From an uncultured Gammaproteobacteria bacterium (GTDB lineage Bacteria > Pseudomonadota > Gammaproteobacteria > Eutrophobiales > Eutrophobiaceae), in contig CATOTD010000003.1 of NCBI GenBank assembly GCA_951812995.1, positions 331,288 to 395,287 of the forward strand: 64,000 bases of DNA, read 5' to 3'. The notes beneath the pieces are model-generated. The model was given only the letters and a program-made list of their open reading frames with translations, ran no database searches and had not been told where the DNA came from. The translations under genes were made by a program, and so were the position numbers. The number at the start of each line of letters is the position of its first letter. The stretch's first letter is position 1. Positions 32,102 to 61,925 of this stretch are shown here, one piece after another.

Positions 32102-35100
32102 ATGACTAAACAAAAACTATCTTATATTCTCGGATTGGACATAGGGGCTAATTCTATCGGTTGGGCAGTTGTAGACTGTGAAAAAGAAGAAGGAGAACAT
32201 CATCAGGGAATATATGCCGGATACAAGCCCACTCGCTTGCGTGCACTGAATTCCCGCATCTTTGAGGATATGCTAGATGCAAAGACCAAAGTGCCCAAAA
32301 ACCAAAAACGCCGGTCGGCAAGAGGGGCACGCAATCGCCGTAGTTATTATAAAAAACGCCGCAAAGAACTTATAAAAACACTCAAAGCAGCAGGGTTTTT
32401 GCCCAAGAGCTACAAGCGGCAAACCTCAGAAAGCATACTCAACGAGATAGATAGAACATTTGCCGAACGCAAACTTGGCAAACCTTGGTCTAAAGACTGG
32501 ACAGCAGCCGACAAGACGTACCGCTCTGCTTATGCCATGCGTAACTTTGCATTAGAAGAAAAACTTGAGCCTTTTGAATTGGGACGGTTGCTACTCCAGT
32601 TGCAACGCCGCAGAGGTTATTTCAGCAATCGGGGCGCAAAATACATTGAACTCATTAGACATCTTTCTCTGGAGGCACTGGAAGATGACGAAAAATCTAT
32701 GAGTGCTGAGGAAAAGAAAGAAAGCGGCCCGGTACTTGCCGCCATTAGTGAGCTGGACAAGCAACTAGATGGGCGCACACTCGGGCAGTTTATCTGGCAA
32801 GAAGCGAAAGAAAAACAAATACCACCGCAACGTATTACTTTATTTGAGTTTGAGAAAACCCAAATACGCAAAGAAGAAAAAATCATTGAGTCATTACAAT
32901 TCCGTGCTCAGCGTGAAATGTATGAACAAGAATTTGATGCCATCTTAAATAAGCAAAATTCATTTCATGATATGGACAATGAAACCATTAAGGCAATCAA
33001 AAAAGCCATTTTCCATCAACGCCCTTTGCAGTTGCAAAAGGGTAAGGTGGGCAACTGCAACATTTACCCACGAAAAAAGCGGGCGGCCTTAATGCGGTTA
33101 GAGATGCAGGAATGTCGCATTTGGCAAATGATAAATAATATAAAAATCGGCAAACAACCACTGAGCGAAGAACAACGTCAAACACTTTTTACATTGGCCA
33201 ATGACCCTGACAAACTGAATAAATCAGGACGCATTGCGTGGAAAGAAATTACCAAAGCGTTAGGTGTGAAGCAACACAACTACAGTAGAGGCGATGATGG
33301 TGAAGGAAAAACGGGACTGATTGGCAATAGAACCGCTCAGGCTATCAGTGCCTGTATTGGTAAAGACCAGTGGCGGGCATTGAGCCCGAAAGATAAAATC
33401 GCATTGGTAGAAGACCTGCTTTCTATACACAACAAGCGGGCTTTATATAAGCGATTGGTAGGGTACTGGGGGTTTGCTCGTTATGAGAGCGGCGATGACC
33501 CTGCAAAAGGTGCCTTGGGACTGGTGATGAACGAGCAATTAGAAGATGGCTATGGCAAACATAGCCTGAAAGCTATCAATGCCTTGTTGGAGCATCTGCG
33601 AGAAGGTAAAGATTACTATGCGGCAGTGAAGGAGATAGGTGCGCTTGAGAGTATCGCCAAGCCTATCAGGGAGGTAGCAGAGGATTATGTGTTGTCTGTG
33701 GATAGTGTCCCGGAAATTGCTAACCCAACCGTGCAAAAGGCACTGTATGAAATACGGCGCGTGGTCAATGCTATAGTGAAATTGTATGGTAAGCCTGCCA
33801 TTATCCGCCTGGAGATGGCACGTGATATGAAATCTTCTAAAAAACACCGCCGTGAAATTGAAAGCCAGCAAAAACAAAACAGAAAAAACAATGAAGAGGC
33901 AGAAAAGGAAATCCTGAAACACTTCAAGAGCAAAGATTCCAACATTACCTTGGAGATATTAAGAAACAAAGCGGCTAGTCGTGTCCAGATAGAAGACCGC
34001 AACAAGTATAAAATGTGGCGTGAACAAGGATGTAGATGCCCTTATTGTGGAGAAGGTATCAGTATTGGCGATCTATTTTCAGGGGAAGCAGAAATTGAGC
34101 ATATCCTGCCCTATACAGGTTTTAGACAAAGTTATATGAATACAGTGGTCAGTTGTCGAAACTGCAATCAGACTAAGGCAAAGCGCACACCTTATGAGGC
34201 CTGGGGGCATACTGAAAGATGGTCTCACATAGAGAAATTTGCCAAAGCAAAGTATGCCAAAAACAAAGGGCTATATCCCAAACAACGCAACATCCTCAAA
34301 AAAGAACACAATCCTGAAGATGAAGAGGCCTTTGTTGAGCGTCAGCTCAATGATACGCGCTATATTGCAACCGCATCCAAGAAAATGTTGGACAATTATG
34401 GCGTGCCAGTTGATGTGAATAACGGCATGGCAACTGGTGAATTACGCAGGCTGTTTGGGTTAAACACTGTCTTACCGAGAGAACCTGATACGGGCGCGTA
34501 TGAAAAGACTGATGAAAAAATTGATACCGAGACAGGCGAGATATTGCAATACAGCGCGAAAAAGGTAGAAAAAATTAAATCCCGGCAAGATCATCGACAC
34601 CATGCAGTAGATGCCTTTGTCATCGCCATGACCGACCGCGCCATGCTAAAGGCGATGATTGAAGTACACAAACAACAACAAGACACCGACCCATCACATA
34701 AAGAAACCAAAGAAGACTGGATTAAGAGAAAGCGTTTAGTATTACCTGAAAATTGGCAAGATGACGACAACCTACATGATCTACTAAAAAGCCGACTGGA
34801 CGATACTGTCGTATCACACATGACCAAGCGCAAAGTATGGGGTGCGTTACATGAAGAGACGCTCTATAGAAAATCACATTTTAAGCAAAGTCTGAAGCTG
34901 GATACTAAATCAGGTACTTTGAAAAAAGTACAGAAAATTGCCCAAGTTGAGGCTGGCGGTAATACACCGTGGATTGCCAATGAGCCGTTGCGTGCCAATT
35001 TGCTGGAATGGGCAACCAACATGCAGGAACTAACACTTGCCAAACGTAGCTTACCAAATTGGAATGGAAACAAGCTGTATGAGTTTGCCTATCAAACACC

Positions 35101-35851
35101 TTGCGTGAGCAATAGAAAAAGCCTCGTTGACTGGGCGAATGGACTATCAAAACTCAATGCAGATTGGCAGCCTGGCACTGGTACCTGGATTGCTGAAAAA
35201 TCTATTCATGATGTTCTTTTTCGTTGGCTAAAAAAGCATAACTTGCTTGGTAAAGAAGCTAATGCGATAAAGAAGAAACTGGATAGTGATCCCCCTTATA
35301 TACGTAATAAAAAAGGACATTCTATTATTATCAAGCGTGTAAGCCTTGCTGATCGCCTGACGGATTCTTATGTCAAAATGGGCAATTCCTATGTAACCCC
35401 CGGCAGCAATCATCATTTTGTGCTATTCCATAATGGCAAGGAAGGCGAGGAAAAGCAAAGACGGATTCGTATGGAAACCATGCTGGATACAGCAAAGCGC
35501 GCCAGTGCTGGCCAACCCATTGTCGTCAAAGAGCCATCGTCAGAGTGGGAAGGAGAGTGGCACTATGAGTTGCATCTATGTGTTAATGACATAGTGCGTT
35601 GCGAGGATATGAGTATCTTTGACGATAATGAAAAGTTTGCGCCTGAACATAAAAAAACCCCGTATTTTAGAGTGCAGACAATGAATAGTGAAAGTGATAA
35701 AAAAATTGACCTCCGCCTACGCCACCATAGTATTTCCGGTACTGATTCCAACTGGGGGCTATGGCGTATCCAGTCACTTAACAACATCGAACTCACAAAA
35801 GTGCAATTAGGCAATTTAGGCTTGTTGCCAGATGGTTTGATACACGAATAA
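32102..35851 (+). CDS. cas9: Cas9, type II-C (1249 aa from ATG 32102; ORF open from 32066)
   Basis: RuvC-I (YILGLDIGANSIGWAVV), an Arg-rich bridge helix (RRSARGARNRRSYYKKRRK), HNH (EIEHILPYTGFRQSYMNTVVSCRNCNQTKAKRTPYE) and RuvC-III (DHRHHAVDAFVIA). AGGA lies 3 nt (32100-32101) upstream of ATG 32102. Confidence 0.93.
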   Translation: MTKQKLSYILGLDIGANSIGWAVVDCEKEEGEHHQGIYAGYKPTRLRALNSRIFEDMLDAKTKVPKNQKRRSARGARNRRSYYKKRRKELIKTLKAAGFLPKSYKRQTSESILNEIDRTFAERKLGKPWSKDWTAADKTYRSAYAMRNFALEEKLEPFELGRLLLQLQRRRGYFSNRGAKYIELIRHLSLEALEDDEKSMSAEEKKESGPVLAAISELDKQLDGRTLGQFIWQEAKEKQIPPQRITLFEFEKTQIRKEEKIIESLQFRAQREMYEQEFDAILNKQNSFHDMDNETIKAIKKAIFHQRPLQLQKGKVGNCNIYPRKKRAALMRLEMQECRIWQMINNIKIGKQPLSEEQRQTLFTLANDPDKLNKSGRIAWKEITKALGVKQHNYSRGDDGEGKTGLIGNRTAQAISACIGKDQWRALSPKDKIALVEDLLSIHNKRALYKRLVGYWGFARYESGDDPAKGALGLVMNEQLEDGYGKHSLKAINALLEHLREGKDYYAAVKEIGALESIAKPIREVAEDYVLSVDSVPEIANPTVQKALYEIRRVVNAIVKLYGKPAIIRLEMARDMKSSKKHRREIESQQKQNRKNNEEAEKEILKHFKSKDSNITLEILRNKAASRVQIEDRNKYKMWREQGCRCPYCGEGISIGDLFSGEAEIEHILPYTGFRQSYMNTVVSCRNCNQTKAKRTPYEAWGHTERWSHIEKFAKAKYAKNKGLYPKQRNILKKEHNPEDEEAFVERQLNDTRYIATASKKMLDNYGVPVDVNNGMATGELRRLFGLNTVLPREPDTGAYEKTDEKIDTETGEILQYSAKKVEKIKSRQDHRHHAVDAFVIAMTDRAMLKAMIEVHKQQQDTDPSHKETKEDWIKRKRLVLPENWQDDDNLHDLLKSRLDDTVVSHMTKRKVWGALHEETLYRKSHFKQSLKLDTKSGTLKKVQKIAQVEAGGNTPWIANEPLRANLLEWATNMQELTLAKRSLPNWNGNKLYEFAYQTPCVSNRKSLVDWANGLSKLNADWQPGTGTWIAEKSIHDVLFRWLKKHNLLGKEANAIKKKLDSDPPYIRNKKGHSIIIKRVSLADRLTDSYVKMGNSYVTPGSNHHFVLFHNGKEGEEKQRRIRMETMLDTAKRASAGQPIVVKEPSSEWEGEWHYELHLCVNDIVRCEDMSIFDDNEKFAPEHKKTPYFRVQTMNSESDKKIDLRLRHHSISGTDSNWGLWRIQSLNNIELTKVQLGNLGLLPDGLIHE

Positions 35852-35888: not shown

Positions 35889-36797
35889 ATGATAAAACGC
35901 ACCATTGAGGTCAGCAGTTCCGCATATCTTCACCTGAGGGACAGACAGATGGTTGTATGCAGAAAAGAAGAGAAGGACGAGAGGGTGCCTGTGGAAGATA
36001 TGGGGATTCTGATCCTTGCCAATCCGTCAATAACCATCTCGCAAAACCTCATAGCCGCCTGTCAGGAAAACAACTGCATCATCGTTTTCTGCGACAAAAG
36101 GCATTTGCCTGTCTCAATCCTGTTGCCGCTTTCTGGGCATTCAATTCACAGCAGGGTGCTCAACATGCAGACCAGCGTTAAAAAGCCGCTGAAAAAAAGG
36201 CTCTGGCAAAAGATAATCATGGCAAAAATAGTAGCACAGGCAACAACGCTTGCATTTTTCAAAAAAGACCCAGCTTCGCTTTCGCAAATGAAAAAACGGG
36301 TTCAAAGCGGCGATGCGGGCAATCTGGAATCGCAAGCGGCAAGAATTTACTGGAAGAGTCTTTTCGGCAAAGAATTTATCAGAGATTATGAGCAAGAAGG
36401 CGAAAACATCTTGCTCAATTACGGATACAGCATTGTCAGAGCGTCAGTCGCAAGAGCACTGTGTGGCACAGGGCTTCATCCCGCACTGGGAATTCATCAT
36501 CACAATCAATACAACCCGCTTTGTCTTGCAGACGACCTGATGGAACCGCTACGTCCACTTGTTGACAGGCGGGTTTATGAGATGAAACAAGCGGGCAGAG
36601 TCGCCCTTAGCAAAGAAACAAAGCAATCGCTGCTGTCTGTCTTGTCTGAGGATGTGCTTTTTAATGATAAAAAACTGCCGATGAATGTTGCGGTGCAACT
36701 TTATGCGGCCAGCCTTAAAAAGGCATTTTCCGATGGCGTTGATGCTTTGAAAATTCCAACGCTGACTGATATAAGACAACTGCAAATTGAAATTTAG
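35889..36797 (+). CDS. cas1: Cas1 integrase
   Basis: 302 aa with a type II Cas1-like sequence (..NLESQAARIYW.., ..LNYGYSIVRASVARAL.., ..GIHHHNQYNPLCLADDLMEPLRPLVD). Confidence 0.9.
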   Translation: MIKRTIEVSSSAYLHLRDRQMVVCRKEEKDERVPVEDMGILILANPSITISQNLIAACQENNCIIVFCDKRHLPVSILLPLSGHSIHSRVLNMQTSVKKPLKKRLWQKIIMAKIVAQATTLAFFKKDPASLSQMKKRVQSGDAGNLESQAARIYWKSLFGKEFIRDYEQEGENILLNYGYSIVRASVARALCGTGLHPALGIHHHNQYNPLCLADDLMEPLRPLVDRRVYEMKQAGRVALSKETKQSLLSVLSEDVLFNDKKLPMNVAVQLYAASLKKAFSDGVDALKIPTLTDIRQLQIEI

Positions 36798-36801
36798 GAC
36801 A

Positions 36802-37131
36802 ATGGTTTTCGGAGGGTACAGAACTTTGTGGATAGTCGTGATGTTTGACTTGCCAACCGATACCAAGCGGGCCAGGCGGGCTTATACCAATTTTAGAAAA
36901 CTACTCATTCAAGACGGGTTTATCATGATGCAGTTTTCGGTTTATGCCAGGCATTGTGCCAGCGATGAAAATGCAACGGTGCATACGGGGCGGATCCAGG
37001 TTGGACTGCCGCCAGATGGGGAGGTTAGAATTATCACAATCACTGATAAACAGTTTGGCAAAATGCAGGTTTTTTATGGGAAAAAACGCAAAATACCAGA
37101 GCGAGCCCCTCAACAGGTTACGCTTTTTTAA
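36802..37131 (+). CDS. cas2: Cas2
   Basis: 109 aa from ATG 36802 (ORF open from 36787). Cas2-like sequence: ..WIVVMFDLPTDTKRARRAYTNFRKLLIQDGFIMMQFSVYARH.. . It follows cas1 directly and precedes the array. Confidence 0.85.
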   Translation: MVFGGYRTLWIVVMFDLPTDTKRARRAYTNFRKLLIQDGFIMMQFSVYARHCASDENATVHTGRIQVGLPPDGEVRIITITDKQFGKMQVFYGKKRKIPERAPQQVTLF

Positions 37132-37181: not shown

Positions 37182-40100
37182 ATTATAACTGACTGAAGCC
37201 TGCCCTCTATTCACAACCGGCGCGGTGGTGCCCAAAGCCGATCTCGAATTATAACTGACTGAAGCCTGCCCTCTATTCACAACGTATCGCCGCAGTCAAC
37301 AAATCGATCTCTTATTATAACTGACTGAAGCCTGCCCTCTATTCACAACTCAGCCCGCCACTGCCCCGATGGATGATGATTATAACTGACTGAAGCCTGC
37401 CCTCTATTCACAACAGTTGCCGAGCGGCTGACGCACAGCCGCGGATTATAACTGACTGAAGCCTGCCCTCTATTCACAACCAGCGGGCAATAAAGCAATT
37501 TGCGAAACAGATTATAACTGACTGAAGCCTGCCCTCTATTCACAACGTTCAACCCCTTACTCACAACCAAGTTAGAATTATAACTGACTGAAGCCTGCCC
37601 TCTATTCACAACCAGAAGTAATCGAGTATGCAATCCTCAAGGATTATAACTGACTGAAGCCTGCCCTCTATTCACAACAATCTGCGTGCGGTGGTCGATG
37701 CGGCCCTGATTATAACTGACTGAAGCCTGCCCTCTATTCACAACCTCTCGAGAGAGAGAGAGAGGGTACAAGCGATTATAACTGACTGAAGCCTGCCCTC
37801 TATTCACAACTATAACATGACCCAACAATGGCAACGAATAATTATAACTGACTGAAGCCTGCCCTCTATTCACAACTATTCCAGCGCATGACCGCCGCGC
37901 TCGATAATTATAACTGACTGAAGCCTGCCCTCTATTCACAACACCATTACACATAGGTAGATAGCTAGTTTAATTATAACTGACTGAAGCCTGCCCTCTA
38001 TTCACAACAATAACAACTCTGCCACCTTTAACTTGAGATTATAACTGACTGAAGCCTGCCCTCTATTCACAACTCCTCCGAGATACTACTTTTAGCAAAA
38101 TAAATTATAACTGACTGAAGCCTGCCCTCTATTCACAACAGAAACAGTCAAAGGACCTTTAATTGTAAAATTATAACTGACTGAAGCCTGCCCTCTATTC
38201 ACAACAAAAAAGGGGAAGGATACAATTAGCTAAAATTATAACTGACTGAAGCCTGCCCTCTATTCACAACGCAATAGTGCCGCTTATGCACGGCTCGATT
38301 ATTATAACTGACTGAAGCCTGCCCTCTATTCACAACGCCAACCAGGACGACCCTCACCCCACGGCGATTATAACTGACTGAAGCCTGCCCTCTATTCACA
38401 ACCTACAAGGGTCTATCTTCTCGAACTGATTTATTATAACTGACTGAAGCCTGCCCTCTATTCACAACCATAACTTGCAATATGCCTTAATAGACCACAT
38501 TATAACTGACTGAAGCCTGCCCTCTATTCACAACCAAAAAGCCAAAAACGAATACACCGAGATAATTATAACTGACTGAAGCCTGCCCTCTATTCACAAC
38601 AGCGATGAACTACATTACAGCTACCATCGAATTATAACTGACTGAAGCCTGCCCTCTATTCACAACCAGAAAGCCAAAAACGAATACACCGAGATAATTA
38701 TAACTGACTGAAGCCTGCCCTCTATTCACAACTGCTGAAAAAGCGATCAGATGGTTCTCCAAATTATAACTGACTGAAGCCTGCCCTCTATTCACAACGC
38801 GATTATGCGATTGGATGTTGGCGTTTTATTATAACTGACTGAAGCCTGCCCTCTATTCACAACAGATGAAGCTCGAATAGGTATCTTATGTTCATTATAA
38901 CTGACTGAAGCCTGCCCTCTATTCACAACTTTCATGGCATAGTTGATAACTGCATCCTGATTATAACTGACTGAAGCCTGCCCTCTATTCACAACGCGCG
39001 AGATACTTGCAAAGACCGGCATCGAATTATAACTGACTGAAGCCTGCCCTCTATTCACAACGATGACAACTCTGCCACCTTTAACTTGAGCATTATAACT
39101 GACTGAAGCCTGCCCTCTATTCACAACACACAGGCTAACCTCGCAATGCCTCTCGCTATTATAACTGACTGAAGCCTGCCCTCTATTCACAACATTTCGG
39201 AGGAGAGGCCTTTGCCATGATTTATTATAACTGACTGAAGCCTGCCCTCTATTCACAACGATTACAACTCTGCCACCTTTAACTTGAGCATTATAACTGA
39301 CTGAAGCCTGCCCTCTATTCACAACCAAAAAGCCGAAAACGAATACACCGAGATAATTATAACTGACTGAAGCCTGCCCTCTATTCACAACGATTTAAGC
39401 AATGATATTGACTTGTTTAATATTATAACTGACTGAAGCCTGCCCTCTATTCACAACATGCACGGGCAACGAGAAAAACAACATCAAATTATAACTGACT
39501 GAAGCCTGCCCTCTATTCACAACAGAAACGGTCAAAGGCCCTTTAATTGTAAAATTATAACTGACTGAAGCCTGCCCTCTATTCACAACAGAAACGGTCA
39601 AAGGCCCTTTAATTGTAAAATTATAACTGACTGAAGCCTGCCCTCTATTCACAACCGCATAGCAGGCACAACGAAACTCGAACTCATTATAACTGACTGA
39701 AGCCTGCCCTCTATTCACAACTGGCAAAAACTTCAAGACAAAGGCAAAGAGATTATAACTGACTGAAGCCTGCCCTCTATTCACAACTGATAGCTAAACT
39801 GGTGATTTGCACCGAGGATTATAACTGACTGAAGCCTGCCCTCTATTCACAACCAGACGTTCAAACTGATGCGCTTGTTGCTGATTATAACTGACTGAAG
39901 CCTGCCCTCTATTCACAACACACCTTTGAAGTCTCCTGATGTTGTCAAGATTATAACTGACTGAAGCCTGCCCTCTATTCACAACCAATATCCAGTAGTG
40001 ACAAGATACAAGCTTATTATAACTGACTGAAGCCTGCCCTCTATTCACAACTAAAAAAGGGTAGACCTGTTCAACCCCTTAATTATAACTGACTGAAGCC

Positions 40101-43100
40101 TGCCCTCTATTCACAACCAAATCCATCTCATAATCACCAGACTCGTAATTATAACTGACTGAAGCCTGCCCTCTATTCACAACCCCGCACCGCCGATTGA
40201 ATAGAGTTGTTGAATTATAACTGACTGAAGCCTGCCCTCTATTCACAACCGGCGCGGTGGTGCCCAAAGCCGATCTTGAATTATAACTGACTGAAGCCTG
40301 CCCTCTATTCACAACAAGTTGAAACAACGCCGCCGCGATCGCTGTATTATAACTGACTGAAGCCTGCCCTCTATTCACAACTGTAACCATAACCGATAGA
40401 ATCGTAAAGCCATTATAACTGACTGAAGCCTGCCCTCTATTCACAACTTTCATCGCATAATTGATAACTGCATCCTGATTATAACTGACTGAAGCCTGCC
40501 CTCTATTCACAACCATCATTGTCATGCAATCATCAGATTCACGATTATAACTGACTGAAGCCTGCCCTCTATTCACAACTAATATCCAATAGTGACAAGA
40601 TACAAGCTTATTATAACTGACTGAAGCCTGCCCTCTATTCACAACTGACAACTTTAACTCTGGGTCCCTGTGGTAATTATAACTGACTGAAGCCTGCCCT
40701 CTATTCACAACAACTTGAGCCCCATGCAACCTGTGAACATGATTATAACTGACTGAAGCCTGCCCTCTATTCACAACAGAAACAGTCAAAGGCCCTTTAA
40801 TTGTAAAATTATAACTGACTGAAGCCTGCCCTCTATTCACAACCCCGATGAGAGGCCTTTGCCATGATTTATTATTATAACTGACTGAAGCCTGCCCTCT
40901 ATTCACAACCCGGAGGAGAGGCCTGTGTCATGATTTATTATTATAACTGACTGAAGCCTGCCCTCTATTCACAACCAATATCCAATAGTGACAAGATACA
41001 AGTTTATTATAACTGACTGAAGCCTGCCCTCTATTCACAACGAAATAGCTATAAGTCCGCAACAATGTATAATTATAACTGACTGAAGCCTGCCCTCTAT
41101 TCACAACCCGGATGAGAGGCCTGTGCCATGATTTATTATTATAACTGACTGAAGCCTGCCCTCTATTCACAACAACATCCGACCCACGATACATCCATAC
41201 GATATTATAACTGACTGAAGCCTGCCCTCTATTCACAACTCTGGAGACATGGAATTATATGTTGACTTTATTATAACTGACTGAAGCCTGCCCTCTATTC
41301 ACAACCCGATTGCCTTCACATCTGCATTCACAGTCATTATAACTGACTGAAGCCTGCCCTCTATTCACAACAGGCAAAGAGTTAACGAACAAAGAAAAAA
41401 TATTATAACTGACTGAAGCCTGCCCTCTATTCACAACTTATCTGAGAAAGAGTAAGAGAAACACCATATTATAACTGACTGAAGCCTGCCCTCTATTCAC
41501 AACCTGTGCCATGATTTACTTGGTTACAGGGGCATTATAACTGACTGAAGCCTGCCCTCTATTCACAACAGCAGGTACCGAGAAAAACAACATCAAAAAT
41601 TATAACTGACTGAAGCCTGCCCTCTATTCACAACTGATTTGTATTTTAGTGCTGAGGAACATACATTATAACTGACTGAAGCCTGCCCTCTATTCACAAC
41701 CAACAATGTATAAAATATTCCTCCGCCGCGATTATAACTGACTGAAGCCTGCCCTCTATTCACAACAGTCGAAGGTCTTGTCGCTAAGAGTGGCAAATTA
41801 TAACTGACTGAAGCCTGCCCTCTATTCACAACACCTCGAATGGGTATCTTATGTTCGGATGAATTATAACTGACTGAAGCCTGCCCTCTATTCACAACGC
41901 TAGCCACGGTTGGTATCTATATATTCACATTATAACTGACTGAAGCCTGCCCTCTATTCACAACCCCTCTCGTACCAATTACTGATATATCTGATTATAA
42001 CTGACTGAAGCCTGCCCTCTATTCACAACTTATAGTTGCTAACCAAATCAGCAATATATATTATAACTGACTGAAGCCTGCCCTCTATTCACAACATGTA
42101 ACCTATGAACATGTGAATTACGTACATTATAACTGACTGAAGCCTGCCCTCTATTCACAACTTCTCTTTGTTCGTTAACTCTTTGCCTTTGATTATAACT
42201 GACTGAAGCCTGCCCTCTATTCACAACCGTTGCCGATGCCCGCCGCGGCGTGCAAATATTATAACTGACTGAAGCCTGCCCTCTATTCACAACTGCGGAA
42301 GTTATTCAGCATCACGCCGCCTCATTATAACTGACTGAAGCCTGCCCTCTATTCACAACGGCCACCAGCTCGTGTATGCCGCCGGCGGCATTATAACTGA
42401 CTGAAGCCTGCCCTCTATTCACAACCAATAAGATCGAGGTCGCCTGCGGCGGTACATTATAACTGACTGAAGCCTGCCCTCTATTCACAACCAACAGTAG
42501 CCAACCATTCCATAGTTACGTATTATAACTGACTGAAGCCTGCCCTCTATTCACAACCAACAGTAGCCAACCATTCCATAGTTACGTATTATAACTGACT
42601 GAAGCCTGCCCTCTATTCACAACCTTCAAAGGTGTCGCACTGTCCATACAATAATTATAACTGACTGAAGCCTGCCCTCTATTCACAACGTAACTTCCAC
42701 TGAGGCTGAGGCTGAAGCATTATAACTGACTGAAGCCTGCCCTCTATTCACAACGTTAATGCTGTCGACCTCCCTACCCTTCCCATTATAACTGACTGAA
42801 GCCTGCCCTCTATTCACAACTAATCTCATTTTTGCCGCTATGATAGCTAAATTATAACTGACTGAAGCCTGCCCTCTATTCACAACGGTCTTACTCTTGG
42901 AAAGTGCGCGGTGATTATTATAACTGACTGAAGCCTGCCCTCTATTCACAACATGAGCGGGCAACGAGAAAAATAACATCAAATTATAACTGACTGAAGC
43001 CTGCCCTCTATTCACAACGTTGAAGGTCTTGTCGCTAAGAGTGGCAAGATTATAACTGACTGAAGCCTGCCCTCTATTCACAACTTTTGCCGTGCGGCCC

Positions 43101-46100
43101 GCGACCTGCGGCCAATTATAACTGACTGAAGCCTGCCCTCTATTCACAACGGCGAGGCTGTCGTTGAAGAAATGCAACGAATTATAACTGACTGAAGCCT
43201 GCCCTCTATTCACAACAATCGGCTTTGCGGGCAATTACACCCGCAAATTATAACTGACTGAAGCCTGCCCTCTATTCACAACAACTAACCAAGAAAGGTC
43301 GGTTATCTGAGAATTATAACTGACTGAAGCCTGCCCTCTATTCACAACTACAAAGTTAAAGTTTTCAGTGCCTTTGAAATTATAACTGACTGAAGCCTGC
43401 CCTCTATTCACAACAATCTGCGTGCGCTGGTCGATGCCGCGCTGATTATAACTGACTGAAGCCTGCCCTCTATTCACAACAGTCCGCGACAGGGATGTCG
43501 CGGAACCTGTATTATAACTGACTGAAGCCTGCCCTCTATTCACAACGCCTTGTGGCATGGCGATACATTGAGTTTCATTATAACTGACTGAAGCCTGCCC
43601 TCTATTCACAACCTGGCAGGATGTCGAGGCGTTGACTAGATAATTATAACTGACTGAAGCCTGCCCTCTATTCACAACCAACAATGCATTGAGTACTCAA
43701 CAGCCGCAATTATAACTGACTGAAGCCTGCCCTCTATTCACAACGCCGATGGCTCCCTTACCGTTCGGAAAACGATTATAACTGACTGAAGCCTGCCCTC
43801 TATTCACAACAGAAACAGTCAAAGGCCCTTTAATTGTAAAATTATAACTGACTGAAGCCTGCCCTCTATTCACAACGTTGGCTACTGTTGGTATCTATAT
43901 ATTTACATTATAACTGACTGAAGCCTGCCCTCTATTCACAACCATCACGCCCATGCAATCATCAGATTCACGATTATAACTGACTGAAGCCTGCCCTCTA
44001 TTCACAACAACGATTGCGATCAAAGCGACAGCAACTGTATTATAACTGACTGAAGCCTGCCCTCTATTCACAACGCCGAGCAAGACCATCTTCGATCGCA
44101 TCGTATTATAACTGACTGAAGCCTGCCCTCTATTCACAACACACAAGCGACTTTAGTGTCGCACCAACACATTATAACTGACTGAAGCCTGCCCTCTATT
44201 CACAACAGGCGACTTGGTTATGTCTGATGCGCATGGATTATAACTGACTGAAGCCTGCCCTCTATTCACAACACTACCCGCGCTAGCCATCGCGGCCAAG
44301 TTATTATAACTGACTGAAGCCTGCCCTCTATTCACAACGCATATTTTAATGATGTCCCCCAGCATAAAATTATAACTGACTGAAGCCTGCCCTCTATTCA
44401 CAACCGATAACATCAACATCATCATCGACAAAGTATTATAACTGACTGAAGCCTGCCCTCTATTCACAACGGTTAAGGTGTTTTCGTTGCTAAGAAGGTC
44501 ATTATAACTGACTGAAGCCTGCCCTCTATTCACAACGTCGCGGTGTGTCTCTTCACACTGATTTTTATTATAACTGACTGAAGCCTGCCCTCTATTCACA
44601 ACTCCATCTTGACCATGATATTGATCAGCGGAATTATAACTGACTGAAGCCTGCCCTCTATTCACAACAGCCGATATGATGTAAAAAGTCATTGTTGATT
44701 ATAACTGACTGAAGCCTGCCCTCTATTCACAACCCTAGTCGATTGGACTTCAACCACAGCTATATTATAACTGACTGAAGCCTGCCCTCTATTCACAACC
44801 GGCCTAGTCGATTGGACTTCAACCACAGCATTATAACTGACTGAAGCCTGCCCTCTATTCACAACAGTAATGGCGGCATCAAGAGCGGCATGAGATTATA
44901 ACTGACTGAAGCCTGCCCTCTATTCACAACTCGTCAGGCGTTGCGGCTACCCTATCCAAAATTATAACTGACTGAAGCCTGCCCTCTATTCACAACTTAA
45001 AACAAGCCGGGGATTTTGATGCCCTGATTATAACTGACTGAAGCCTGCCCTCTATTCACAACTCAACTGGAGACCTCGAACAACGCTGATTCATTATAAC
45101 TGACTGAAGCCTGCCCTCTATTCACAACAACAACGAAGCTCGAACTCTGCGTTGATAAATTATAACTGACTGAAGCCTGCCCTCTATTCACAACACATAT
45201 TTACAAACGGATCGTAGTGTCGTTATTATAACTGACTGAAGCCTGCCCTCTATTCACAACCCTGCCCGCGCCGGATTAGCGCGGCTGGTCATTATAACTG
45301 ACTGAAGCCTGCCCTCTATTCACAACAGTTGCCGAGCGGTTGATACACAGCCGCGGATTATAACTGACTGAAGCCTGCCCTCTATTCACAACTGACTTGG
45401 TTGTGAGTAAGGGGTTAAACAGATTATAACTGACTGAAGCCTGCCCTCTATTCACAACGCCAGACATCGAGGTGTTGATGATTGATTGATTATAACTGAC
45501 TGAAGCCTGCCCTCTATTCACAACCAATTGGGTTTCTAATACGTTCCCAAATTGATTATAACTGACTGAAGCCTGCCCTCTATTCACAACAAGATTTACT
45601 GCCATAAGAAATCTGCACTTATTATAACTGACTGAAGCCTGCCCTCTATTCACAACTACCAAGAGTAAGACCCACGCAGGCTAACCATTATAACTGACTG
45701 AAGCCTGCCCTCTATTCACAACTCGATTGGATCTGCATAGCATCAAGACGACATTATAACTGACTGAAGCCTGCCCTCTATTCACAACAAGACGACCCAG
45801 GGTCCAACAGGATCGCCTATTATAACTGACTGAAGCCTGCCCTCTATTCACAACGGCTTCCGGTAACGAAGAAAGAGCCTTAAAATTATAACTGACTGAA
45901 GCCTGCCCTCTATTCACAACCAGCGGGCAATAAAGCAATTTGCGAAACAGATTATAACTGACTGAAGCCTGCCCTCTATTCACAACGCGCGGCGGCACGG
46001 TGGTATTAAAAATTTAATTATAACTGACTGAAGCCTGCCCTCTATTCACAACTCGGGGTGCGACCGGTGCGCCCAGGCTCGAATTATAACTGACTGAAGC

Positions 46101-49100
46101 CTGCCCTCTATTCACAACACTAAGACATCTGTCGTCTGTTTTTTCAGCATTATAACTGACTGAAGCCTGCCCTCTATTCACAACACTCATAATCACCGCG
46201 CCTTGTGCGATTGCATTATAACTGACTGAAGCCTGCCCTCTATTCACAACAAAGTGTAACAGTGTTAGATGTTATCAGTGATTATAACTGACTGAAGCCT
46301 GCCCTCTATTCACAACGCTGGACGATGAGCCCGCCCCGGCGGCTGATTATAACTGACTGAAGCCTGCCCTCTATTCACAACGCGAAAAATGTCAGGGCAG
46401 ATGATTTTGCGATTATAACTGACTGAAGCCTGCCCTCTATTCACAACTCCGCGCCCGTATCAGCAAATATCGCCGCGATTATAACTGACTGAAGCCTGCC
46501 CTCTATTCACAACAGCACAGCTAGCCACCACCACCGGTGATTAATTATAACTGACTGAAGCCTGCCCTCTATTCACAACGGGCGACAGCTTATACACAAT
46601 AGACTTACGATTATAACTGACTGAAGCCTGCCCTCTATTCACAACAGAATTCCAGGCAACCAAACCCCAGATCGATTATAACTGACTGAAGCCTGCCCTC
46701 TATTCACAACTCATCTGTGATCGTGCTTGCGGTATATCGTATTATAACTGACTGAAGCCTGCCCTCTATTCACAACTCGCCAAACCAGCGCGTTTTGCCG
46801 TGCGGCATTATAACTGACTGAAGCCTGCCCTCTATTCACAACTTTGCGTCACCGGCAGGCAGGCCATTCTTCATTATAACTGACTGAAGCCTGCCCTCTA
46901 TTCACAACCGCGCTGGGGCGGGTCTTGTTGCTGGTCTGATTATAACTGACTGAAGCCTGCCCTCTATTCACAACAACGATTACGATCAAAGCGACAGCAA
47001 CTGTATTATAACTGACTGAAGCCTGCCCTCTATTCACAACCGCCGGACTAGCCGAAGTCAACGACACTGCATTATAACTGACTGAAGCCTGCCCTCTATT
47101 CACAACAGGCGACTTGGTTATGTCTGATGCGCATGGATTATAACTGACTGAAGCCTGCCCTCTATTCACAACCGCTTTCTGATCATCTTGATTTTTTCAC
47201 ATATTATAACTGACTGAAGCCTGCCCTCTATTCACAACTCAAACAGATTTGTATGCGCAGGCTTTAGGATTATAACTGACTGAAGCCTGCCCTCTATTCA
47301 CAACCCCAACAACATAACCGCCTAATCCTAGCTGATTATAACTGACTGAAGCCTGCCCTCTATTCACAACCGATGGCGCGCTGGCTAAAGGGCATCGCTG
47401 ATTATAACTGACTGAAGCCTGCCCTCTATTCACAACGAGCGCGGGCACCGGCATAGCCAGCCCGCATTATAACTGACTGAAGCCTGCCCTCTATTCACAA
47501 CGAGCGCGGGCACCGGCATAGCCAGCCCGCTATTATAACTGACTGAAGCCTGCCCTCTATTCACAACCAATCTTTGCGGAGAGACGACCTCTAAATCATT
47601 ATAACTGACTGAAGCCTGCCCTCTATTCACAACTTTTGCCGTGCGGCCCGCGACCAGCGGCCAATTATAACTGACTGAAGCCTGCCCTCTATTCACAACG
47701 ATCGGCGCGGGATAACGCAAGATCGTACAATTATAACTGACTGAAGCCTGCCCTCTATTCACAACCATCGGCGATGATGAGGCGGAGATTAGCCGATTAT
47801 AACTGACTGAAGCCTGCCCTCTATTCACAACGGACTTTGCGATAAGGCCGAGGCCTGCGAGATTATAACTGACTGAAGCCTGCCCTCTATTCACAACTCA
47901 AACAGATTTGTATGCGCAGGCTTTAGGATTATAACTGACTGAAGCCTGCCCTCTATTCACAACGCCGAGCGGGCCGGGAGATGTTCAAAATGAATTATAA
48001 CTGACTGAAGCCTGCCCTCTATTCACAACCAGCAAATCGACTATCAAATCACCAAAGGCATTATAACTGACTGAAGCCTGCCCTCTATTCACAACAAAAG
48101 TGCACCCGCGCCGGACTTTGCGATAATTATAACTGACTGAAGCCTGCCCTCTATTCACAACTGGCATCGGGGTTAGTTCGCCTGCGGCGAAATTATAACT
48201 GACTGAAGCCTGCCCTCTATTCACAACTTGATCAGATAATCTTTGATGCTGAAGAGTATTATAACTGACTGAAGCCTGCCCTCTATTCACAACGATTGGC
48301 CGCGCGGCCAGTCATCGCTTTGTATTATAACTGACTGAAGCCTGCCCTCTATTCACAACTCAAACAGATTTGTATGCGCAGGCTTTAGGATTATAACTGA
48401 CTGAAGCCTGCCCTCTATTCACAACGCCGAGCGGGCCGGGAGATGTTCAAAATGAATTATAACTGACTGAAGCCTGCCCTCTATTCACAACCAGCAAATC
48501 GACTATCAAATCACCAAAGGCATTATAACTGACTGAAGCCTGCCCTCTATTCACAACAAAAGTGCACCCGCGCCGGACTTTGCGATAATTATAACTGACT
48601 GAAGCCTGCCCTCTATTCACAACTGGCATCGGGGTTAGTTCGCCTGCGGCGAAATTATAACTGACTGAAGCCTGCCCTCTATTCACAACTTGATCAGATA
48701 ATCTTTGATGCTGAAGAGTATTATAACTGACTGAAGCCTGCCCTCTATTCACAACGATTGGCCGCGCGGCCAGTCATCGCTTTGTATTATAACTGACTGA
48801 AGCCTGCCCTCTATTCACAACGACTCACCTGCGGGCGGCGGCCGGGGATATATTATAACTGACTGAAGCCTGCCCTCTATTCACAACGCAATCGAACAGG
48901 CGTTAAAACCAGTGCAAATTATAACTGACTGAAGCCTGCCCTCTATTCACAACCGGCGGTGGTGTCATTAAATGCGGTATCAGATTATAACTGACTGAAG
49001 CCTGCCCTCTATTCACAACCGCCGGACTAGCCGAAGTCAACGACACTGCATTATAACTGACTGAAGCCTGCCCTCTATTCACAACTCGGAGCGACGCATG

Positions 49101-52100
49101 GCCGCATGGCCGAGCATTATAACTGACTGAAGCCTGCCCTCTATTCACAACACTAATATAGTTGATTTGACCAGCGAATTTATTATAACTGACTGAAGCC
49201 TGCCCTCTATTCACAACATTCTGATCGTTGATGAAGCGCAGTTTCTGATTATAACTGACTGAAGCCTGCCCTCTATTCACAACATTCTGATCGTTGATGA
49301 AGCGCAGTTTCTGATTATAACTGACTGAAGCCTGCCCTCTATTCACAACCGGCGCGGCGACCGGCAGAGCCGCGGGCGCATTATAACTGACTGAAGCCTG
49401 CCCTCTATTCACAACCACCCGGGTACTTATAATAGTGCTTTGTTTATTATAACTGACTGAAGCCTGCCCTCTATTCACAACAGATGTGCCCAAATCAAAT
49501 AATGCATCGCGATTATAACTGACTGAAGCCTGCCCTCTATTCACAACGTTCTGATGGTGCGGCTCGCAAGGCCTTTAATTATAACTGACTGAAGCCTGCC
49601 CTCTATTCACAACGACTGCTGAGGCGGAGCTGAATAGCATTCGATTATAACTGACTGAAGCCTGCCCTCTATTCACAACGCCGCACCGATAACAACTGCC
49701 TCTATTACAATTATAACTGACTGAAGCCTGCCCTCTATTCACAACAGATATTGCCGAAGCCATGCTCTATCTATAATTATAACTGACTGAAGCCTGCCCT
49801 CTATTCACAACCATCGGCAACGTCTACTATCAATCTTTCAAATTATAACTGACTGAAGCCTGCCCTCTATTCACAACGTCAAATAAACGCGTTTTTTGTT
49901 TATTTGAATTATAACTGACTGAAGCCTGCCCTCTATTCACAACATAATGAATAACACTTACATCACTAGCGATATTATAACTGACTGAAGCCTGCCCTCT
50001 ATTCACAACCATCAAGGAAGAGGCCAGCAAACGAAACGCATTATAACTGACTGAAGCCTGCCCTCTATTCACAACTATCTGCTAATGCTCGTGCTCGCGA
50101 TCGCGATTATAACTGACTGAAGCCTGCCCTCTATTCACAACTAGGTGCGGAATGTGTTTGATAAATTTGTAATTATAACTGACTGAAGCCTGCCCTCTAT
50201 TCACAACCAAGGTATCGAGGGGGTGTTCCCCTCCCTGATTATAACTGACTGAAGCCTGCCCTCTATTCACAACACTCTCCGCCCAGGCCTCGTTAAAACT
50301 CAAATTATAACTGACTGAAGCCTGCCCTCTATTCACAACTTGCGCATCATCGACCGGCTCGTCGATCATATTATAACTGACTGAAGCCTGCCCTCTATTC
50401 ACAACGATCGCGCCAGTCATAACGCACCGGCGACCATTATAACTGACTGAAGCCTGCCCTCTATTCACAACGGCGGGGATTAGATAAAGATGCTGATGAT
50501 GATTATAACTGACTGAAGCCTGCCCTCTATTCACAACCAGCAAATCGACTATCAAATCACCAAAGGCATTATAACTGACTGAAGCCTGCCCTCTATTCAC
50601 AACCACTGTCAAGCCAGAACCTTCTCTGATATTATTATAACTGACTGAAGCCTGCCCTCTATTCACAACGTTTGCGCATTGCTCGTGGCATTCGCCGCGA
50701 TTATAACTGACTGAAGCCTGCCCTCTATTCACAACTCAACCACGCGCCGTTGCGCCGCGATTTTGATTATAACTGACTGAAGCCTGCCCTCTATTCACAA
50801 CTAGGGGTAGAAGTCACCGATCGACTCCTTGATTATAACTGACTGAAGCCTGCCCTCTATTCACAACTATGGGCACGATGCTCCGCGCCCTGGCTAAATT
50901 ATAACTGACTGAAGCCTGCCCTCTATTCACAACTTTGGATCGCGCGGTTCGACACACCCACCGATTATAACTGACTGAAGCCTGCCCTCTATTCACAACG
51001 CTCAACCGCGCATCGACTGCTGAGGCGGAATTATAACTGACTGAAGCCTGCCCTCTATTCACAACTTATTTGATGAGGTAAAGATAGCTTATCAAATTAT
51101 AACTGACTGAAGCCTGCCCTCTATTCACAACTACGATCTGGCATACCCGCCCGCGCCGGATATTATAACTGACTGAAGCCTGCCCTCTATTCACAACGAG
51201 ACTTGCGATCGGATCGATCGCAACGCGATTATAACTGACTGAAGCCTGCCCTCTATTCACAACTGCCGCCACGGCATGGCGGGATTGTCGCGAATTATAA
51301 CTGACTGAAGCCTGCCCTCTATTCACAACACTAACTCATGTATCCCGCCCGATGCAAAATTATAACTGACTGAAGCCTGCCCTCTATTCACAACGCGCGG
51401 CGGCACGGCGGCATTAAAAATCTAATTATAACTGACTGAAGCCTGCCCTCTATTCACAACCGGCGCGGTGGTGCCCAAAGCCGATCTCGAATTATAACTG
51501 ACTGAAGCCTGCCCTCTATTCACAACTGGCGCAGACTTTGACAGATAGCCTTGTTCATTATAACTGACTGAAGCCTGCCCTCTATTCACAACTCCTTTAC
51601 ACTGATAACATCTAACACTGTTATTATAACTGACTGAAGCCTGCCCTCTATTCACAACTTTTGTTACAGGCGCATCTGCATCGCTAGCATTATAACTGAC
51701 TGAAGCCTGCCCTCTATTCACAACTACCGGATAAATCCAACTGCGGCGACCAGTATTATAACTGACTGAAGCCTGCCCTCTATTCACAACGGAATACTTC
51801 AGCATAAAATCGTTTTATCAATTATAACTGACTGAAGCCTGCCCTCTATTCACAACTTGTTCAAAATGAGCTGAGGTACAAAAAAGATTATAACTGACTG
51901 AAGCCTGCCCTCTATTCACAACAGTTCCCAAGGTAAGACCCACGCAGGCTAATTATAACTGACTGAAGCCTGCCCTCTATTCACAACCGGATGCGGCCGT
52001 TCAGCAACAGCTCTTGAATTATAACTGACTGAAGCCTGCCCTCTATTCACAACTTAAAAAGTTATGCGGGTATTTCCAGGTGAATTATAACTGACTGAAG

Positions 52101-55100
52101 CCTGCCCTCTATTCACAACCAACAAGATCGAGGTTGCCTGCGGCGGTACATTATAACTGACTGAAGCCTGCCCTCTATTCACAACTAATATCCAATAATG
52201 ACACGAAACAAGTTTATTATAACTGACTGAAGCCTGCCCTCTATTCACAACTACTAATCGCTTGGCCAGAAACCTGTGCATATTATAACTGACTGAAGCC
52301 TGCCCTCTATTCACAACCTTCATCGCGTAGTTAATGACTGCATCCTGATTATAACTGACTGAAGCCTGCCCTCTATTCACAACACATACTATTGCTTATT
52401 ATAAGTGTATGTAATTATAACTGACTGAAGCCTGCCCTCTATTCACAACCATCGGCACAGATAGCAAAACCAAACTGATATTATAACTGACTGAAGCCTG
52501 CCCTCTATTCACAACTGTTATCGGTGCGGCGGTGCCGCGCGATTGATTATAACTGACTGAAGCCTGCCCTCTATTCACAACCTACTAATCGCTTGGCCAG
52601 AAGCCTGTGCAATTATAACTGACTGAAGCCTGCCCTCTATTCACAACGCTAGAGGCGTTGCGGCTTTAGCTTGTGTTATTATAACTGACTGAAGCCTGCC
52701 CTCTATTCACAACGCCCTTTTAGAGTTAACCTCATTATTCCCAATTATAACTGACTGAAGCCTGCCCTCTATTCACAACATGAGCAACGTCTACATCACC
52801 AGCGATGATATTATAACTGACTGAAGCCTGCCCTCTATTCACAACACATATTTACAAACGGATCGTAGTGTCGTTATTATAACTGACTGAAGCCTGCCCT
52901 CTATTCACAACCTCGACAGGCTTCGCACCAGGGTTTGATTGATTATAACTGACTGAAGCCTGCCCTCTATTCACAACAGATGATTGTATCAGTTAGTGTA
53001 TCATATTATTATAACTGACTGAAGCCTGCCCTCTATTCACAACAGTTCCAAGAGTGAGACCGACACAAGCTAAATTATAACTGACTGAAGCCTGCCCTCT
53101 ATTCACAACAGCTTTGTGGTGCCTGTCATGCGAAAGCTTATTATAACTGACTGAAGCCTGCCCTCTATTCACAACCATAGGTTGGACTATTGATACAAAT
53201 TTTAATTATAACTGACTGAAGCCTGCCCTCTATTCACAACAGGAAAATCGTGGATACAACGTAATTGGCGATTATAACTGACTGAAGCCTGCCCTCTATT
53301 CACAACAAGAATCTTAAGCTCGACCATACTAAGATAATTATAACTGACTGAAGCCTGCCCTCTATTCACAACAATAGCGGCACAAGTTCCAAGAGTGAGA
53401 CCATTATAACTGACTGAAGCCTGCCCTCTATTCACAACTCAAGCAATCAACAACCTGCGGTTTACTCGATTATAACTGACTGAAGCCTGCCCTCTATTCA
53501 CAACATTGTATCAAAATCACTAAAGCCCGAAGCCATTATAACTGACTGAAGCCTGCCCTCTATTCACAACCTATAGAGGCTTGCTCAACCCAACTATTTA
53601 ATTATAACTGACTGAAGCCTGCCCTCTATTCACAACTTCTCGAGCTCACTCCTTTCGCTGTTCACGATTATAACTGACTGAAGCCTGCCCTCTATTCACA
53701 ACAAGTGCGATCGCCGCCGATGGTTTCATACGATTATAACTGACTGAAGCCTGCCCTCTATTCACAACCCCTGCCTGGACAGGGACAACTCCATAAGAAT
53801 TATAACTGACTGAAGCCTGCCCTCTATTCACAACTCGACTACGCGGCGTTGTGCCGCGATTTTGATTATAACTGACTGAAGCCTGCCCTCTATTCACAAC
53901 CTTTACTGCAATGCTTGAGATGTCGATCGGATTATAACTGACTGAAGTCTGCCCTCTATTCACAACTTTTTGGTAAACCTAACTATATGCCTTTTGATTA
54001 TAACTGACTGAAGCCTGCCCTCTATTCACAACACGTCACAACGCGCCTGCATTTATTAATCGATTATAACTGACTGAAGCCTGCCCTCTATTCACAACTA
54101 GTTACAAAAGCTCCTACTGAAGAAGGAGATTATAACTGACTGAAGCCTGCCCTCTATTCACAACTCCGCGAGGCGTGGCCGTGCAGTTACCTGTATTATA
54201 ACTGACTGAAGCCTGCCCTCTATTCACAACCTATCCAAGTCAGCTACTTCAAACACTTCAATTATAACTGACTGAAGCCTGCCCTCTATTCACAACTTCA
54301 TTGTGCAATGCAAGAACCTGTTGCTTATTATAACTGACTGAAGCCTGCCCTCTATTCACAACCCCCAGATAACCGATCCAGTTTTAAAAGGAATTATAAC
54401 TGACTGAAGCCTGCCCTCTATTCACAACTCGTACTGACTTGACGCCTGAGGATTTACGATTATAACTGACTGAAGCCTGCCCTCTATTCACAACAAGAAC
54501 CTTAAGCTCGACCATACCAAGATAATTATAACTGACTGAAGCCTGCCCTCTATTCACAACTCTTATCGTCAATGAACCCTAAGTTATCGAATTATAACTG
54601 ACTGAAGCCTGCCCTCTATTCACAACAGGCAAAATGGCGAAAGGGTGAGACAATTCATTATAACTGACTGAAGCCTGCCCTCTATTCACAACCTTTACCA
54701 TTGTTAGCGTTATGGTCACATGATTATAACTGACTGAAGCCTGCCCTCTATTCACAACGGCAGTCCACAAAACCCCATTACAGCGATCATTATAACTGAC
54801 TGAAGCCTGCCCTCTATTCACAACCAGCCCGTGCGTTTCAAGCGCGAAAGATTTATTATAACTGACTGAAGCCTGCCCTCTATTCACAACATTTCAATAT
54901 TACGTTGAACTGGTTTCAAAATTATAACTGACTGAAGCCTGCCCTCTATTCACAACGCGCCTGGCCGCCGACCGCGCGGCGACTGAATTATAACTGACTG
55001 AAGCCTGCCCTCTATTCACAACCAGCATGTCGCGGGTCTTGCCCGCCGCTCGATTATAACTGACTGAAGCCTGCCCTCTATTCACAACTGAAGCGAGAGG

Positions 55101-55326
55101 GTGCGTTGTTCAAAATGAATTATAACTGACTGAAGCCTGCCCTCTATTCACAACTTGTAATGGGTATAGTGCTTGTTGTCATGGATTATAACTGACTGAA
55201 GCCTGCCCTCTATTCACAACGTATGCAAAGATACCCCGCGGCCTCTCTCTATTATAACTGACTGAAGCCTGCCCTCTATTCACAACTGCTTGATGACTAC
55301 CCTGTCACCAGTTCGGATTATAACTA
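37182..55326 (-). CRISPR. type II-C CRISPR array: 275 complete 36-nt repeats, 275 spacers, plus a 10-nt terminal partial repeat
   Basis: The plus-strand repeat is ATTATAACTGACTGAAGCCTGCCCTCTATTCACAAC. The crRNA sense is the reverse complement, GTTGTGAATAGAGGGCAGGCTTCAGTCAGTTATAAT. This is the GTTGT...AAT form typical of II-C and is complementary to the minus-strand tracrRNA. The period is 66 nt. 260 spacers are 30 nt and 15 are 29 nt, and the arithmetic 37218+274x66-15=55287 matches the last spacer start. One repeat carries a SNP (C->T at 53948). Confidence 0.97.
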
Positions 55327-55563
55327 GGTGTCTAACGCCCAAAGTAGCGACGCATATTAGCGTGTCTAGCCCGAATGGTAGTGTTACCTTTGTTTGTTAA
55401 GTGCTATTCGATAATAAATTACTCTAAAAATATGGGAATTATATACTTGACTCCAGCTTCACTACAAAATACAAACACAATGATTTGTTAGTTTTTTCAA
55501 GTAACAAGCTCACCATGCTCACCTGTTACCTTATGCAATTTTTCAATTGCACTCCATTTTGGG

Positions 55564-55866: not shown

Positions 55867-55885
55867 TCTATTTCCATTGCTTTGC

Positions 55886-56815: not shown

Positions 56816-56860
56816 TGATGACCCTCCGTTTTATTGCATTTTTATGTTAGATTATATGGG

Positions 56861-61924: not shown

Positions 61925-61925
61925 G

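Follow-up and report, generated by a model that had tools for sequence, protein, structure and literature searches.

The stretch analysed here, a 64-kb window (64,000 nt in all) of contig CATOTD010000003.1 from an uncultured gammaproteobacterium, holds a Cas9-encoding CRISPR locus and several pieces of one IS5-family insertion sequence (IS). Spacer 120 of the CRISPR array matches the right end of this IS, and it is quite probably a copy-specific spacer that spans the junction between one IS insertion and its flank, retained in an apparently intact type II-C system. The features under discussion are collected in Table 1.

The CRISPR-Cas locus, its guide strand and its PAM

The cas genes stand in the order cas9-cas1-cas2, and since neither csn2 nor cas4 follows cas2 the system is type II-C. 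The RuvC-I (GLDIG), HNH (...EHILP) and RuvC-III (HHAVDA) motifs are present in the Cas9, and its catalytic motifs align with those of solved Cas9s. With these motifs in place the protein looks competent and the system appears intact. The closest solved structures are compact Cas9s (E about 1e-38 to 1e-44); the search output names them only as Cas9, and they are probably GeoCas9 and NmeCas9 entries. The nearest Cas9 sequences, at 44-69% identity, come from metagenome-assembled genomes of uncultured Gammaproteobacteria and from one labelled Thermodesulfobacteriota, and their loci show the same gene order and the same 36/30-nt periodicity.

The crRNA (CRISPR RNA) is predicted to be read from the minus strand. 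Upstream of cas9, the anti-repeat (31978-31998) of a candidate trans-activating CRISPR RNA (tracrRNA) pairs, when read on the minus strand, with the entire 36-nt minus-sense repeat with a 4-nt bulge; downstream of it lie hairpins and an intrinsic terminator (31898-31881, with a run of T). Cofolding of tracrRNA and repeat gives -79.8 kcal/mol, versus -42.5 for the opposite orientation. The protospacer-adjacent motif (PAM) was derived from overlapping spacers, in which one spacer reveals the natural flank of another (n = 15 distinct cases). On the 3' side in minus sense, position 5 is C in 15 of 15 cases and position 6 is T in seven, C in six and G in two, while the opposite flank shows no conservation. 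The PAM is N4C, located 3' of the protospacer on the guide-sense strand, and such overlaps show that an array by itself can reveal both PAM and guide polarity. Other II-C Cas9s with N4C or N4CC PAMs have been described, and Nme2Cas9, SmuCas9 and NarCas9 likewise have a single C at position 5 as their main requirement (PMC9433092). Unlike theirs, the PAM reported here comes from the 15 natural protospacer flanks, and the proteins are not close relatives.

We further note that the repeat ends in TATAAT in crRNA sense. Promoters embedded in the repeat are a feature of the II-C systems of N. meningitidis and C. jejuni (PMC5965381); here only the -10-like hexamer is seen, and a sigma-70 promoter scan calls no full promoter there. 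An Rfam search of the whole window gave no match.

Table 1. Positions (numbered along the window), strands and characteristics of the features discussed
Feature	Position	Strand	Characteristics
Spacer 120	45063-45092	-	guide sense GAATCAGCGTTGTTCGAGGTCTCC-AGTT-GA
Repeat at seed end of spacer 120	45027-45062	-	in crRNA sense follows the guide (GTTGTGAATAG...)
Repeat on PAM-distal side of spacer 120	45093-45128	-	3' end in crRNA sense ...AGTTATAAT, with -10-like hexamer 5' of the guide
Near-target 1	3124-3153	-	right end of Z plus flank AGATCG; identity to guide 26/30
Near-target 2	62110-62139	+	right end of IS fragment plus flank AGATTC; identity to guide 27/30
Left end of Z plus flank	4405-4440	+	AGTTGA (4429-4434) and CTATCC (4435-4440, valid N4C PAM)
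IS copy Z	3130-4428	-	full length, 1299 bp; inverted repeats GGAAGCCTCTAAAAAC and GGAGACCTCGAACAAC
IS piece Y	2744-3129	+	left end of another copy (left inverted repeat and 5' part of transposase), inverted; 95.6% identical to Z
IS piece X	2446-2743	-	internal fragment ending AGAT (2740-2743); left side truncated by IS256-family element
IS right-end fragment	61926-62133	+	208 bp, 94% identical to Z; inside IS256-family transposase pseudogene
CRISPR array	37182-55286	-	275 repeats of 36 nt, 274 spacers
Leader-like segment	37132-37181		from cas2 to first repeat; partly conserved in one relative (L005)
cas9	32102-35851	+	1249 amino acids; Pfam RuvC_III, HNH_4, Cas9_a (RuvC, HNH, alpha-helical lobe)
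cas1	35889-36797	+	assigned by domain search
cas2	36787-37131	+	array begins 50 nt after it
tracrRNA candidate	31870-31998	-	anti-repeat 21/21 against 3' part of repeat; predicted from sequence

Spacer 120, the IS end and the IS copies

Spacer 120 is the 30-mer TCAACTGGAGACCTCGAACAACGCTGATTC, which lies between two perfect 36-nt repeats; its full guide, in minus-strand crRNA sense, is GAATCAGCGTTGTTCGAGGTCTCCAGTTGA. As the original prediction had reported, the last 26 nt of the spacer are identical at 26 of 26 positions to 62110-62135 (minus strand; BLAST E 2.8e-10) and at 25 of 26 to 3128-3153 (plus strand; BLAST E 6.8e-8), and a match test and BLAST both reproduce this. The opposite strand given there is right for 62110-62135, whereas 3128-3153 lies on the strand of the spacer itself, and its guide-sense target is the minus strand. 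No comparable match arises in any of 100 dinucleotide-preserving shuffles, and a BLAST of all 274 spacers leaves spacer 120 as the sole one with an above-noise match in the window outside the array. Given these E values and shuffles, an origin of the match by chance or as a low-complexity or repeat artefact is practically inconceivable, and chance resemblance also sits badly with a match that breaks off no more than 2 nt from the IS boundary.

A plus-strand crRNA, under which the perfect 26 nt would fall beneath the seed, is ruled out by the PAM analysis and by the pairing and terminator of the tracrRNA. With a minus-strand crRNA and a PAM on the side described, the TTGA that adjoins the PAM is the PAM-proximal seed; a guide ending in TTGA had been proposed earlier and is backed by the invariant C at position 5 (15/15) and by the minus-strand tracrRNA pairing. 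When guide positions are numbered so that 30 is PAM-proximal, the mismatches fall at positions 27, 29 and 30 for 62110-62139 and at 8, 27, 29 and 30 for 3124-3153, and both sites have three mismatches within the last four (PAM-proximal) nt of the guide. The two junction flanks, ATTC (62136-62139) and ATCG in guide sense (3124-3127), are both unlike TTGA, as first read. Also as first read, the PAM-side flank of the 3124-3153 site (TCTTCT, from 3114-3123) contains an N4C PAM and that of 62110-62139 (TCAGTC, 62140-62145) contains none. Neither window site combines a full seed match with a PAM, the combination by which a chromosomal site would be called autoimmune.

Similarity among Z, Y, the right-end fragment and the 80% relatives (L001, L002 and L049) stops at GG...CC, with a right end reading ...GGTCTCC. 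The terminal inverted repeats of Z agree at 12 of 16 positions, and the same ends are found in these three relatives. A more distant relative, present in ten copies, ends in GGACACC...GGTGTCC; all of its flanks are ANNT, and perfect 4-bp duplications (AGTT, AGTT, ATAT, AACT, AGCT and AGCT) occur in six of its eight evaluable copies. Similarly, a relative on a Sphingomonas plasmid has AGGT on both sides, and the window flanks of the present IS (AGAT, AGAT and AGTT) fit ANNT. This group of elements appears to make 4-bp ANNT target duplications; clean duplications are seen in the relatives, and the only one for this IS itself is an inverted AGAT/ATCT pair. The ends assumed earlier, CTGG...CCAG, are replaced by GG...CC with 4-bp ANNT duplications, and the AG formerly counted as IS is target-derived. 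The differing PAM-proximal nucleotides do lie outside the IS, as had been stated, but the element ends 2 nt earlier (...TCC), and the guide has six nucleotides outside it, not four. The guide thus comprises 24 nt of IS right end, the 4-nt duplication-type target AGTT and 2 nt of flank, GA.

Where the original prediction counted two occurrences of the IS5 element, we find four pieces: X, Y, Z and the right-end fragment (61926-62133). None of the window copies is a simple insertion, and the flanks of Z are unequal (AACT versus AGAT in IS sense). The last four nt of X are AGAT (2740-2743), and those of the inverted piece Y are its reverse complement, ATCT (3126-3129); flanking Y, these two tetramers are a duplication of a single 4-bp IS site that corresponds to 4043-4046 in Z. 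Such an inverted duplication would be the expected scar of an inversion produced by intramolecular transposition from two adjacent IS ends. The unequal flanks of Z, together with the inverted 4-bp duplication at X and Y, clearly point to a locus rearranged by transposition.

The IS encodes a transposase with the IS5-family domains DUF772 (PF05598) and DDE_Tnp_1 (PF01609). Intact relatives of 361-383 amino acids carry PF05598, and the 361-amino-acid ones carry PF01609 too. In Z, a TAG at 4017-4019 stands in place of the CAG of piece X (2713-2715) and interrupts the frame, so that a transposase of about 386 amino acids is split into open reading frames (ORFs) of 116 and 241 amino acids. The Z transposase is therefore a pseudogene, and its apparent two-ORF layout is a nonsense mutation. 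According to ISfinder, IS5 itself encodes one DDE transposase whose N-terminal region is DUF772; its terminal repeats are 16 nt long and start with GGA, its target duplication is 4 bp, and the target, YTAR, is a degenerate palindrome. The present element is like it in the DDE transposase with DUF772, the 16-nt repeats starting GGA, the 4-bp duplication and the degenerate palindromic form of the target, and unlike it in that this target is ANNT (AGNT-like) rather than YTAR and in its closest sequence relatives. At 65-70% identity, these closest relatives among plasmid sequences are alphaproteobacterial elements of the IS5 family; this kinship and a GC content of 56.8%, against 44.8% for the rest of the window, mark the IS as foreign and horizontally acquired. 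Its transposase falls in a cluster of 102 sequences with at least 90% identity, carried by contigs of 150-811 kb, so the source genome apparently holds dozens of copies.

Frameshifted transposase pseudogenes of the IS256 family (Mutator-type) are found at 1166-2445, where one truncates piece X, and at 62136-63012, where another is interrupted by the IS5 fragment; the ends of the window are an IS graveyard. Directly left of the truncated IS5 fragment, at 61875-61925, the direct repeat CAATTCAGATGTCCC occurs twice, 22 nt from start to start, and may be the end of yet another element.

Probable origin and tolerance of spacer 120

The flank carried by the spacer is unlike both window junctions, and its source is therefore a different junction of this IS, as was first proposed; this is almost a logical necessity, the alternative being three substitutions within four nt. 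The hexamer AGTTGA reads as the 4-bp duplication AGTT followed by two flanking nt, both from a single insertion that the window does not contain. We propose that an integrated IS copy supplied the spacer at this junction, beside an N4C PAM, and that the captured DNA would have been either incoming or sibling DNA with the IS, or a chromosomal copy lost since. Active transposons are known as hotspots of spacer uptake (PMC5737086). Other copies of the IS would share the PAM-distal part of the target alone. As Cas9 requires a PAM and then seed pairing to form an R-loop, and both window sites mismatch the guide in the seed, neither should be cleaved: three mismatches in the four PAM-proximal nt should stop R-loop nucleation, and one of the two sites also lacks a PAM. 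NmeCas9, for one, has little tolerance for mismatches, and the seed is intact in all of its active off-targets (PMC4786937). The persistence of such a spacer may reflect survivorship, in which a genome full of the IS would keep only those spacers that have seed and PAM in unique flank. Lethality would be expected of a spacer lying entirely within a multi-copy chromosomal IS and of one whose flank is PAM-distal, whereas with flank under the seed a junction spacer would do no harm and could persist as a relic.

Several points weigh against this account. The source junction (…GGTCTCC AGTTGA N4C) is found nowhere: plasmid and phage collections, IMG/VR, JGI metagenomes and GTDB genomes gave no TTGA-flanked IS end of the kind anticipated by the original prediction, a 22-mer of the IS right end has 0 matches in GTDB genomes and IMG/VR, and the 36 JGI metagenome matches to an 18-mer of the IS end are all unrelated sequence, none of them this IS. 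Because the collections searched hold no copy of the IS whatsoever, the missing junction says little; the lineage is essentially unsampled. The expectation that the window sites escape cleavage is carried over from other Cas9s, and this Cas9 is distantly related to the characterised ones. A perfect protospacer may also lie in the source genome outside the 64-kb window. Lastly, the presence of AGTTGA and a PAM at the opposite end of Z is explained only as chance (about 0.01).

The 18-mer GTTGTTCGAGGTCTCCAG is carried by about 17 soil and sediment contigs (among L012-L047) in a conserved context, …ATGATCGAACA-18mer-ACGCAAGGCAGGATTG, unrelated to this IS, and this sharing is probably chance identity within one conserved gene family. 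An origin of the spacer in an IS circle or tandem junction was considered and rejected, as the flank AGTTGA does not run into the left end GGAAGCC in any register.

The coincidence at the left end of Z concerns the 8-mer CCAGTTGA at 4427-4434, which had been noticed before; it is present, and we add that a valid PAM comes next. At the 4405-4440 site the nine PAM-proximal nt equal the guide, but identity is only 20/30 overall, by which derivation of the spacer from this left end is rejected. Outside the array AGTTGA occurs at 20 sites, two of them with a PAM, and one of these two abuts this IS end exactly; allowing for the ANNT preference, we estimate the chance of this at about 0.003 per IS end, which over the window's four ends amounts to about 0.01. 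The flank of Z at 4433-4505 encodes the C-terminus of a glyoxalase/VOC-like protein (DYPNGKFARLHDPEGNPIELWEP...), identified by eye from the translation, and Pfam gives no family for the ORF spanning this segment. The locus sequence there is TTGACTATCCGAACGGCAAG. The 5' part of the VOC-like gene is absent from the window, so a deletion or rearrangement accompanies the IS nest.

An unlikely reading of this coincidence places the protospacer at 4429-4440 itself, in the VOC-like gene, where an oppositely oriented IS would once have abutted AGTTGA-CTATCC with its right end. The insertion would have occurred in the same or a sibling lineage, and the present left-end junction would be the remnant of a replacement or rearrangement, possibly one selected by Cas9 self-targeting. 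Such a history would account for the 6-nt flank and the valid N4C PAM both lying at one place, for the exact abutment of one of the two PAM-bearing sites on this IS end and for the low chance estimates per end and over four ends, and it suits a locus rearranged by transposition, with Z lacking matching duplications and with AGAT/ATCT inverted. The IS part at this site, however, is a left end that agrees with the guide at only 14 of 24 positions (4405-4428), so that the junction must have been remade at the identical nucleotide, and no buildable history of X, Y and Z gives a right end joined to AGTTGA there. AGTT is moreover a common target in this IS group, which lessens the surprise, and the Cas9 cluster comes from a single contig, with no sister genome that shows the ancestral state. 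If this reading were true, the spacer would be the fossil of an insertion at the same AGTT, whose target was later lost, possibly when Cas9 drove a rearrangement of the IS nest, while seed and PAM were left as a scar, and CRISPR self-targeting would be linked to a specific IS rearrangement.

It is extremely unlikely that either window junction supplied the spacer and that the spacer's seed mutated later, relieving autoimmunity. Escape from self-targeting by mutation of the spacer is a known route and the mismatches are clustered in the seed, yet three substitutions in four nt (AGATTC or AGATCG to AGTTGA) are called for where one would suffice, the repeats flanking the spacer are perfect in an array that is not decaying (274 of 275 repeats identical), and the 62110 site, having no PAM, is no normal acquisition substrate. 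Very unlikely, too, is a present-day function at IS ends, whether by Cas9 binding without cutting and so hindering the transposase, or by killing cells with the IS beside TTGA-N4C. The guide does span the terminal repeat bound by transposase, self-targeting has been proposed to limit transposons (PMC5737086), and a new insertion into AGTT-GA-N4C in the right orientation would make a perfect target, a rare tripwire. Against this, stable binding of Cas9 needs PAM and seed pairing, which are wanting in ordinary copies (PMC4786937). By our estimate the tripwire would fire in about 1 in 300 insertions, too rarely to matter; moreover, there is one such spacer among 274, and the IS apparently reached dozens of copies anyway.

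A 2010 survey of CRISPR autoimmunity by Stern and colleagues reportedly describes self-matching spacers with degenerate targets. Spacer 120 read as a junction spacer resembles these in that it matches mobile DNA of its host, is tolerated through differences in critical parts or a missing PAM and stands beside cas genes that look intact. It differs in that its protection would come from spanning the boundary between IS and flank rather than from secondary mutation, and in that only one insertion was ever a full target. In the type II-C system of N. meningitidis, the spacers limit transformation and have their matches in chromosomal or integrated elements found in related strains (Zhang et al., 2013, reviewed in PMC5965381). 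The present locus shares with it the cas9-cas1-cas2 operon, 36-nt repeats, 30-nt spacers, an N4-type 3' PAM and a -10-like hexamer ending the repeat; unlike it, the Cas9 here is about 170 amino acids longer and distantly similar, and the array, with 274 spacers, is roughly tenfold larger. In Pyrococcus furiosus, whose systems are of types I and III, transient spacers from host IS elements were detected by deep sequencing, with nicks or breaks at active elements as the proposed trigger (PMC5737086). The spacer described here is likewise drawn from an IS of the host genome, but it is one fixed spacer, belongs to a Cas9 array and reaches across the IS boundary.

Tolerated imperfect self-matches, II-C spacers against integrated elements (PMC5965381), N4C PAMs (PMC9433092) and IS5-type elements are all well known. 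What is particular here is that protection is structural, through spanning of a junction, and not mutational. Spacer 120 offers a tidy natural illustration of a Cas9 guide against a multi-copy transposon of its own genome that is harmless because the repeated part is PAM-distal and unique flank lies under the seed. It adds an example rather than a principle, and what remains novel is the coincidence beside the left end of Z, together with the array size. If only junction spacers with flank under the seed survive, arrays in IS-laden genomes may record individual past insertions, or the vector that delivered the IS.

The array and neighbouring elements

The repeat of the array is ATTATAACTGACTGAAGCCTGCCCTCTATTCACAAC. 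Spacers are 30 nt long in 259 cases and 29 nt in 15, and 256 of the 274 are unique. Beyond the array end, at 55287-55325, stand one further spacer and a 9-nt repeat stub, which imply that the array was formerly longer. With the stub included, it extends over about 18 kb (37182-55325) and is exceptionally large, the arrays of the nearest relatives having 6-50 repeats. Here as in relatives, degenerate repeats are found at the cas-distal end, and in one relative the segment next to cas2 is conserved in part. The leader is therefore probably on the cas2 side, where new spacers would enter. Spacer 120 lies mid-array, about 119 spacers from this probable leader end, and is therefore probably an old memory.

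Families of near-identical spacers, with differences at scattered sites like codon third positions (sp27/50/230, sp15/36/37/55/101 and sp43/52/58/228), are found mainly at 37218-43840 (examples are 38930-38959, 40448-40477 and 52318-52347) and are concentrated in the cas-proximal 100 spacers. From this pattern it seems that one protospacer was sampled repeatedly, from variants of a single invader that had diverged. Seven spacers in a row, sp163-169, recur as an exact copy in sp170-176 (47898-48785), and other exact duplicates are scattered, such as sp1=sp217 and sp165=sp172=sp203. No spacer of the array found a match when the whole array was compared with phage and plasmid collections by megablast, and three degenerate patterns of the spacer families found none in IMG/VR, from which we take the invaders of this lineage to be unsampled.

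Two of three IS1595-family copies, about 98.5% alike (30160-31619, 55434-56891 and 57812-59276, with a fragment at 63358-63837), bracket the CRISPR-cas locus. Each copy has its own AT-rich 8-bp duplication (ATATAAAA, AAAAATAT and approximately ATTTTTT), by which a composite transposon around the CRISPR-cas locus is rejected; the separate duplications mark the copies as independent recent insertions. Farther to the left, a pfa-type polyunsaturated fatty acid/polyketide cluster (5531-21556) comprises PfaD, two ORFs of about 2200 amino acids and a KAS III-like gene. It is adjoined by a hopanoid cluster (21777-30144) with genes for a squalene synthase-like protein, squalene-hopene cyclase, HpnG, HpnN and HpnA.

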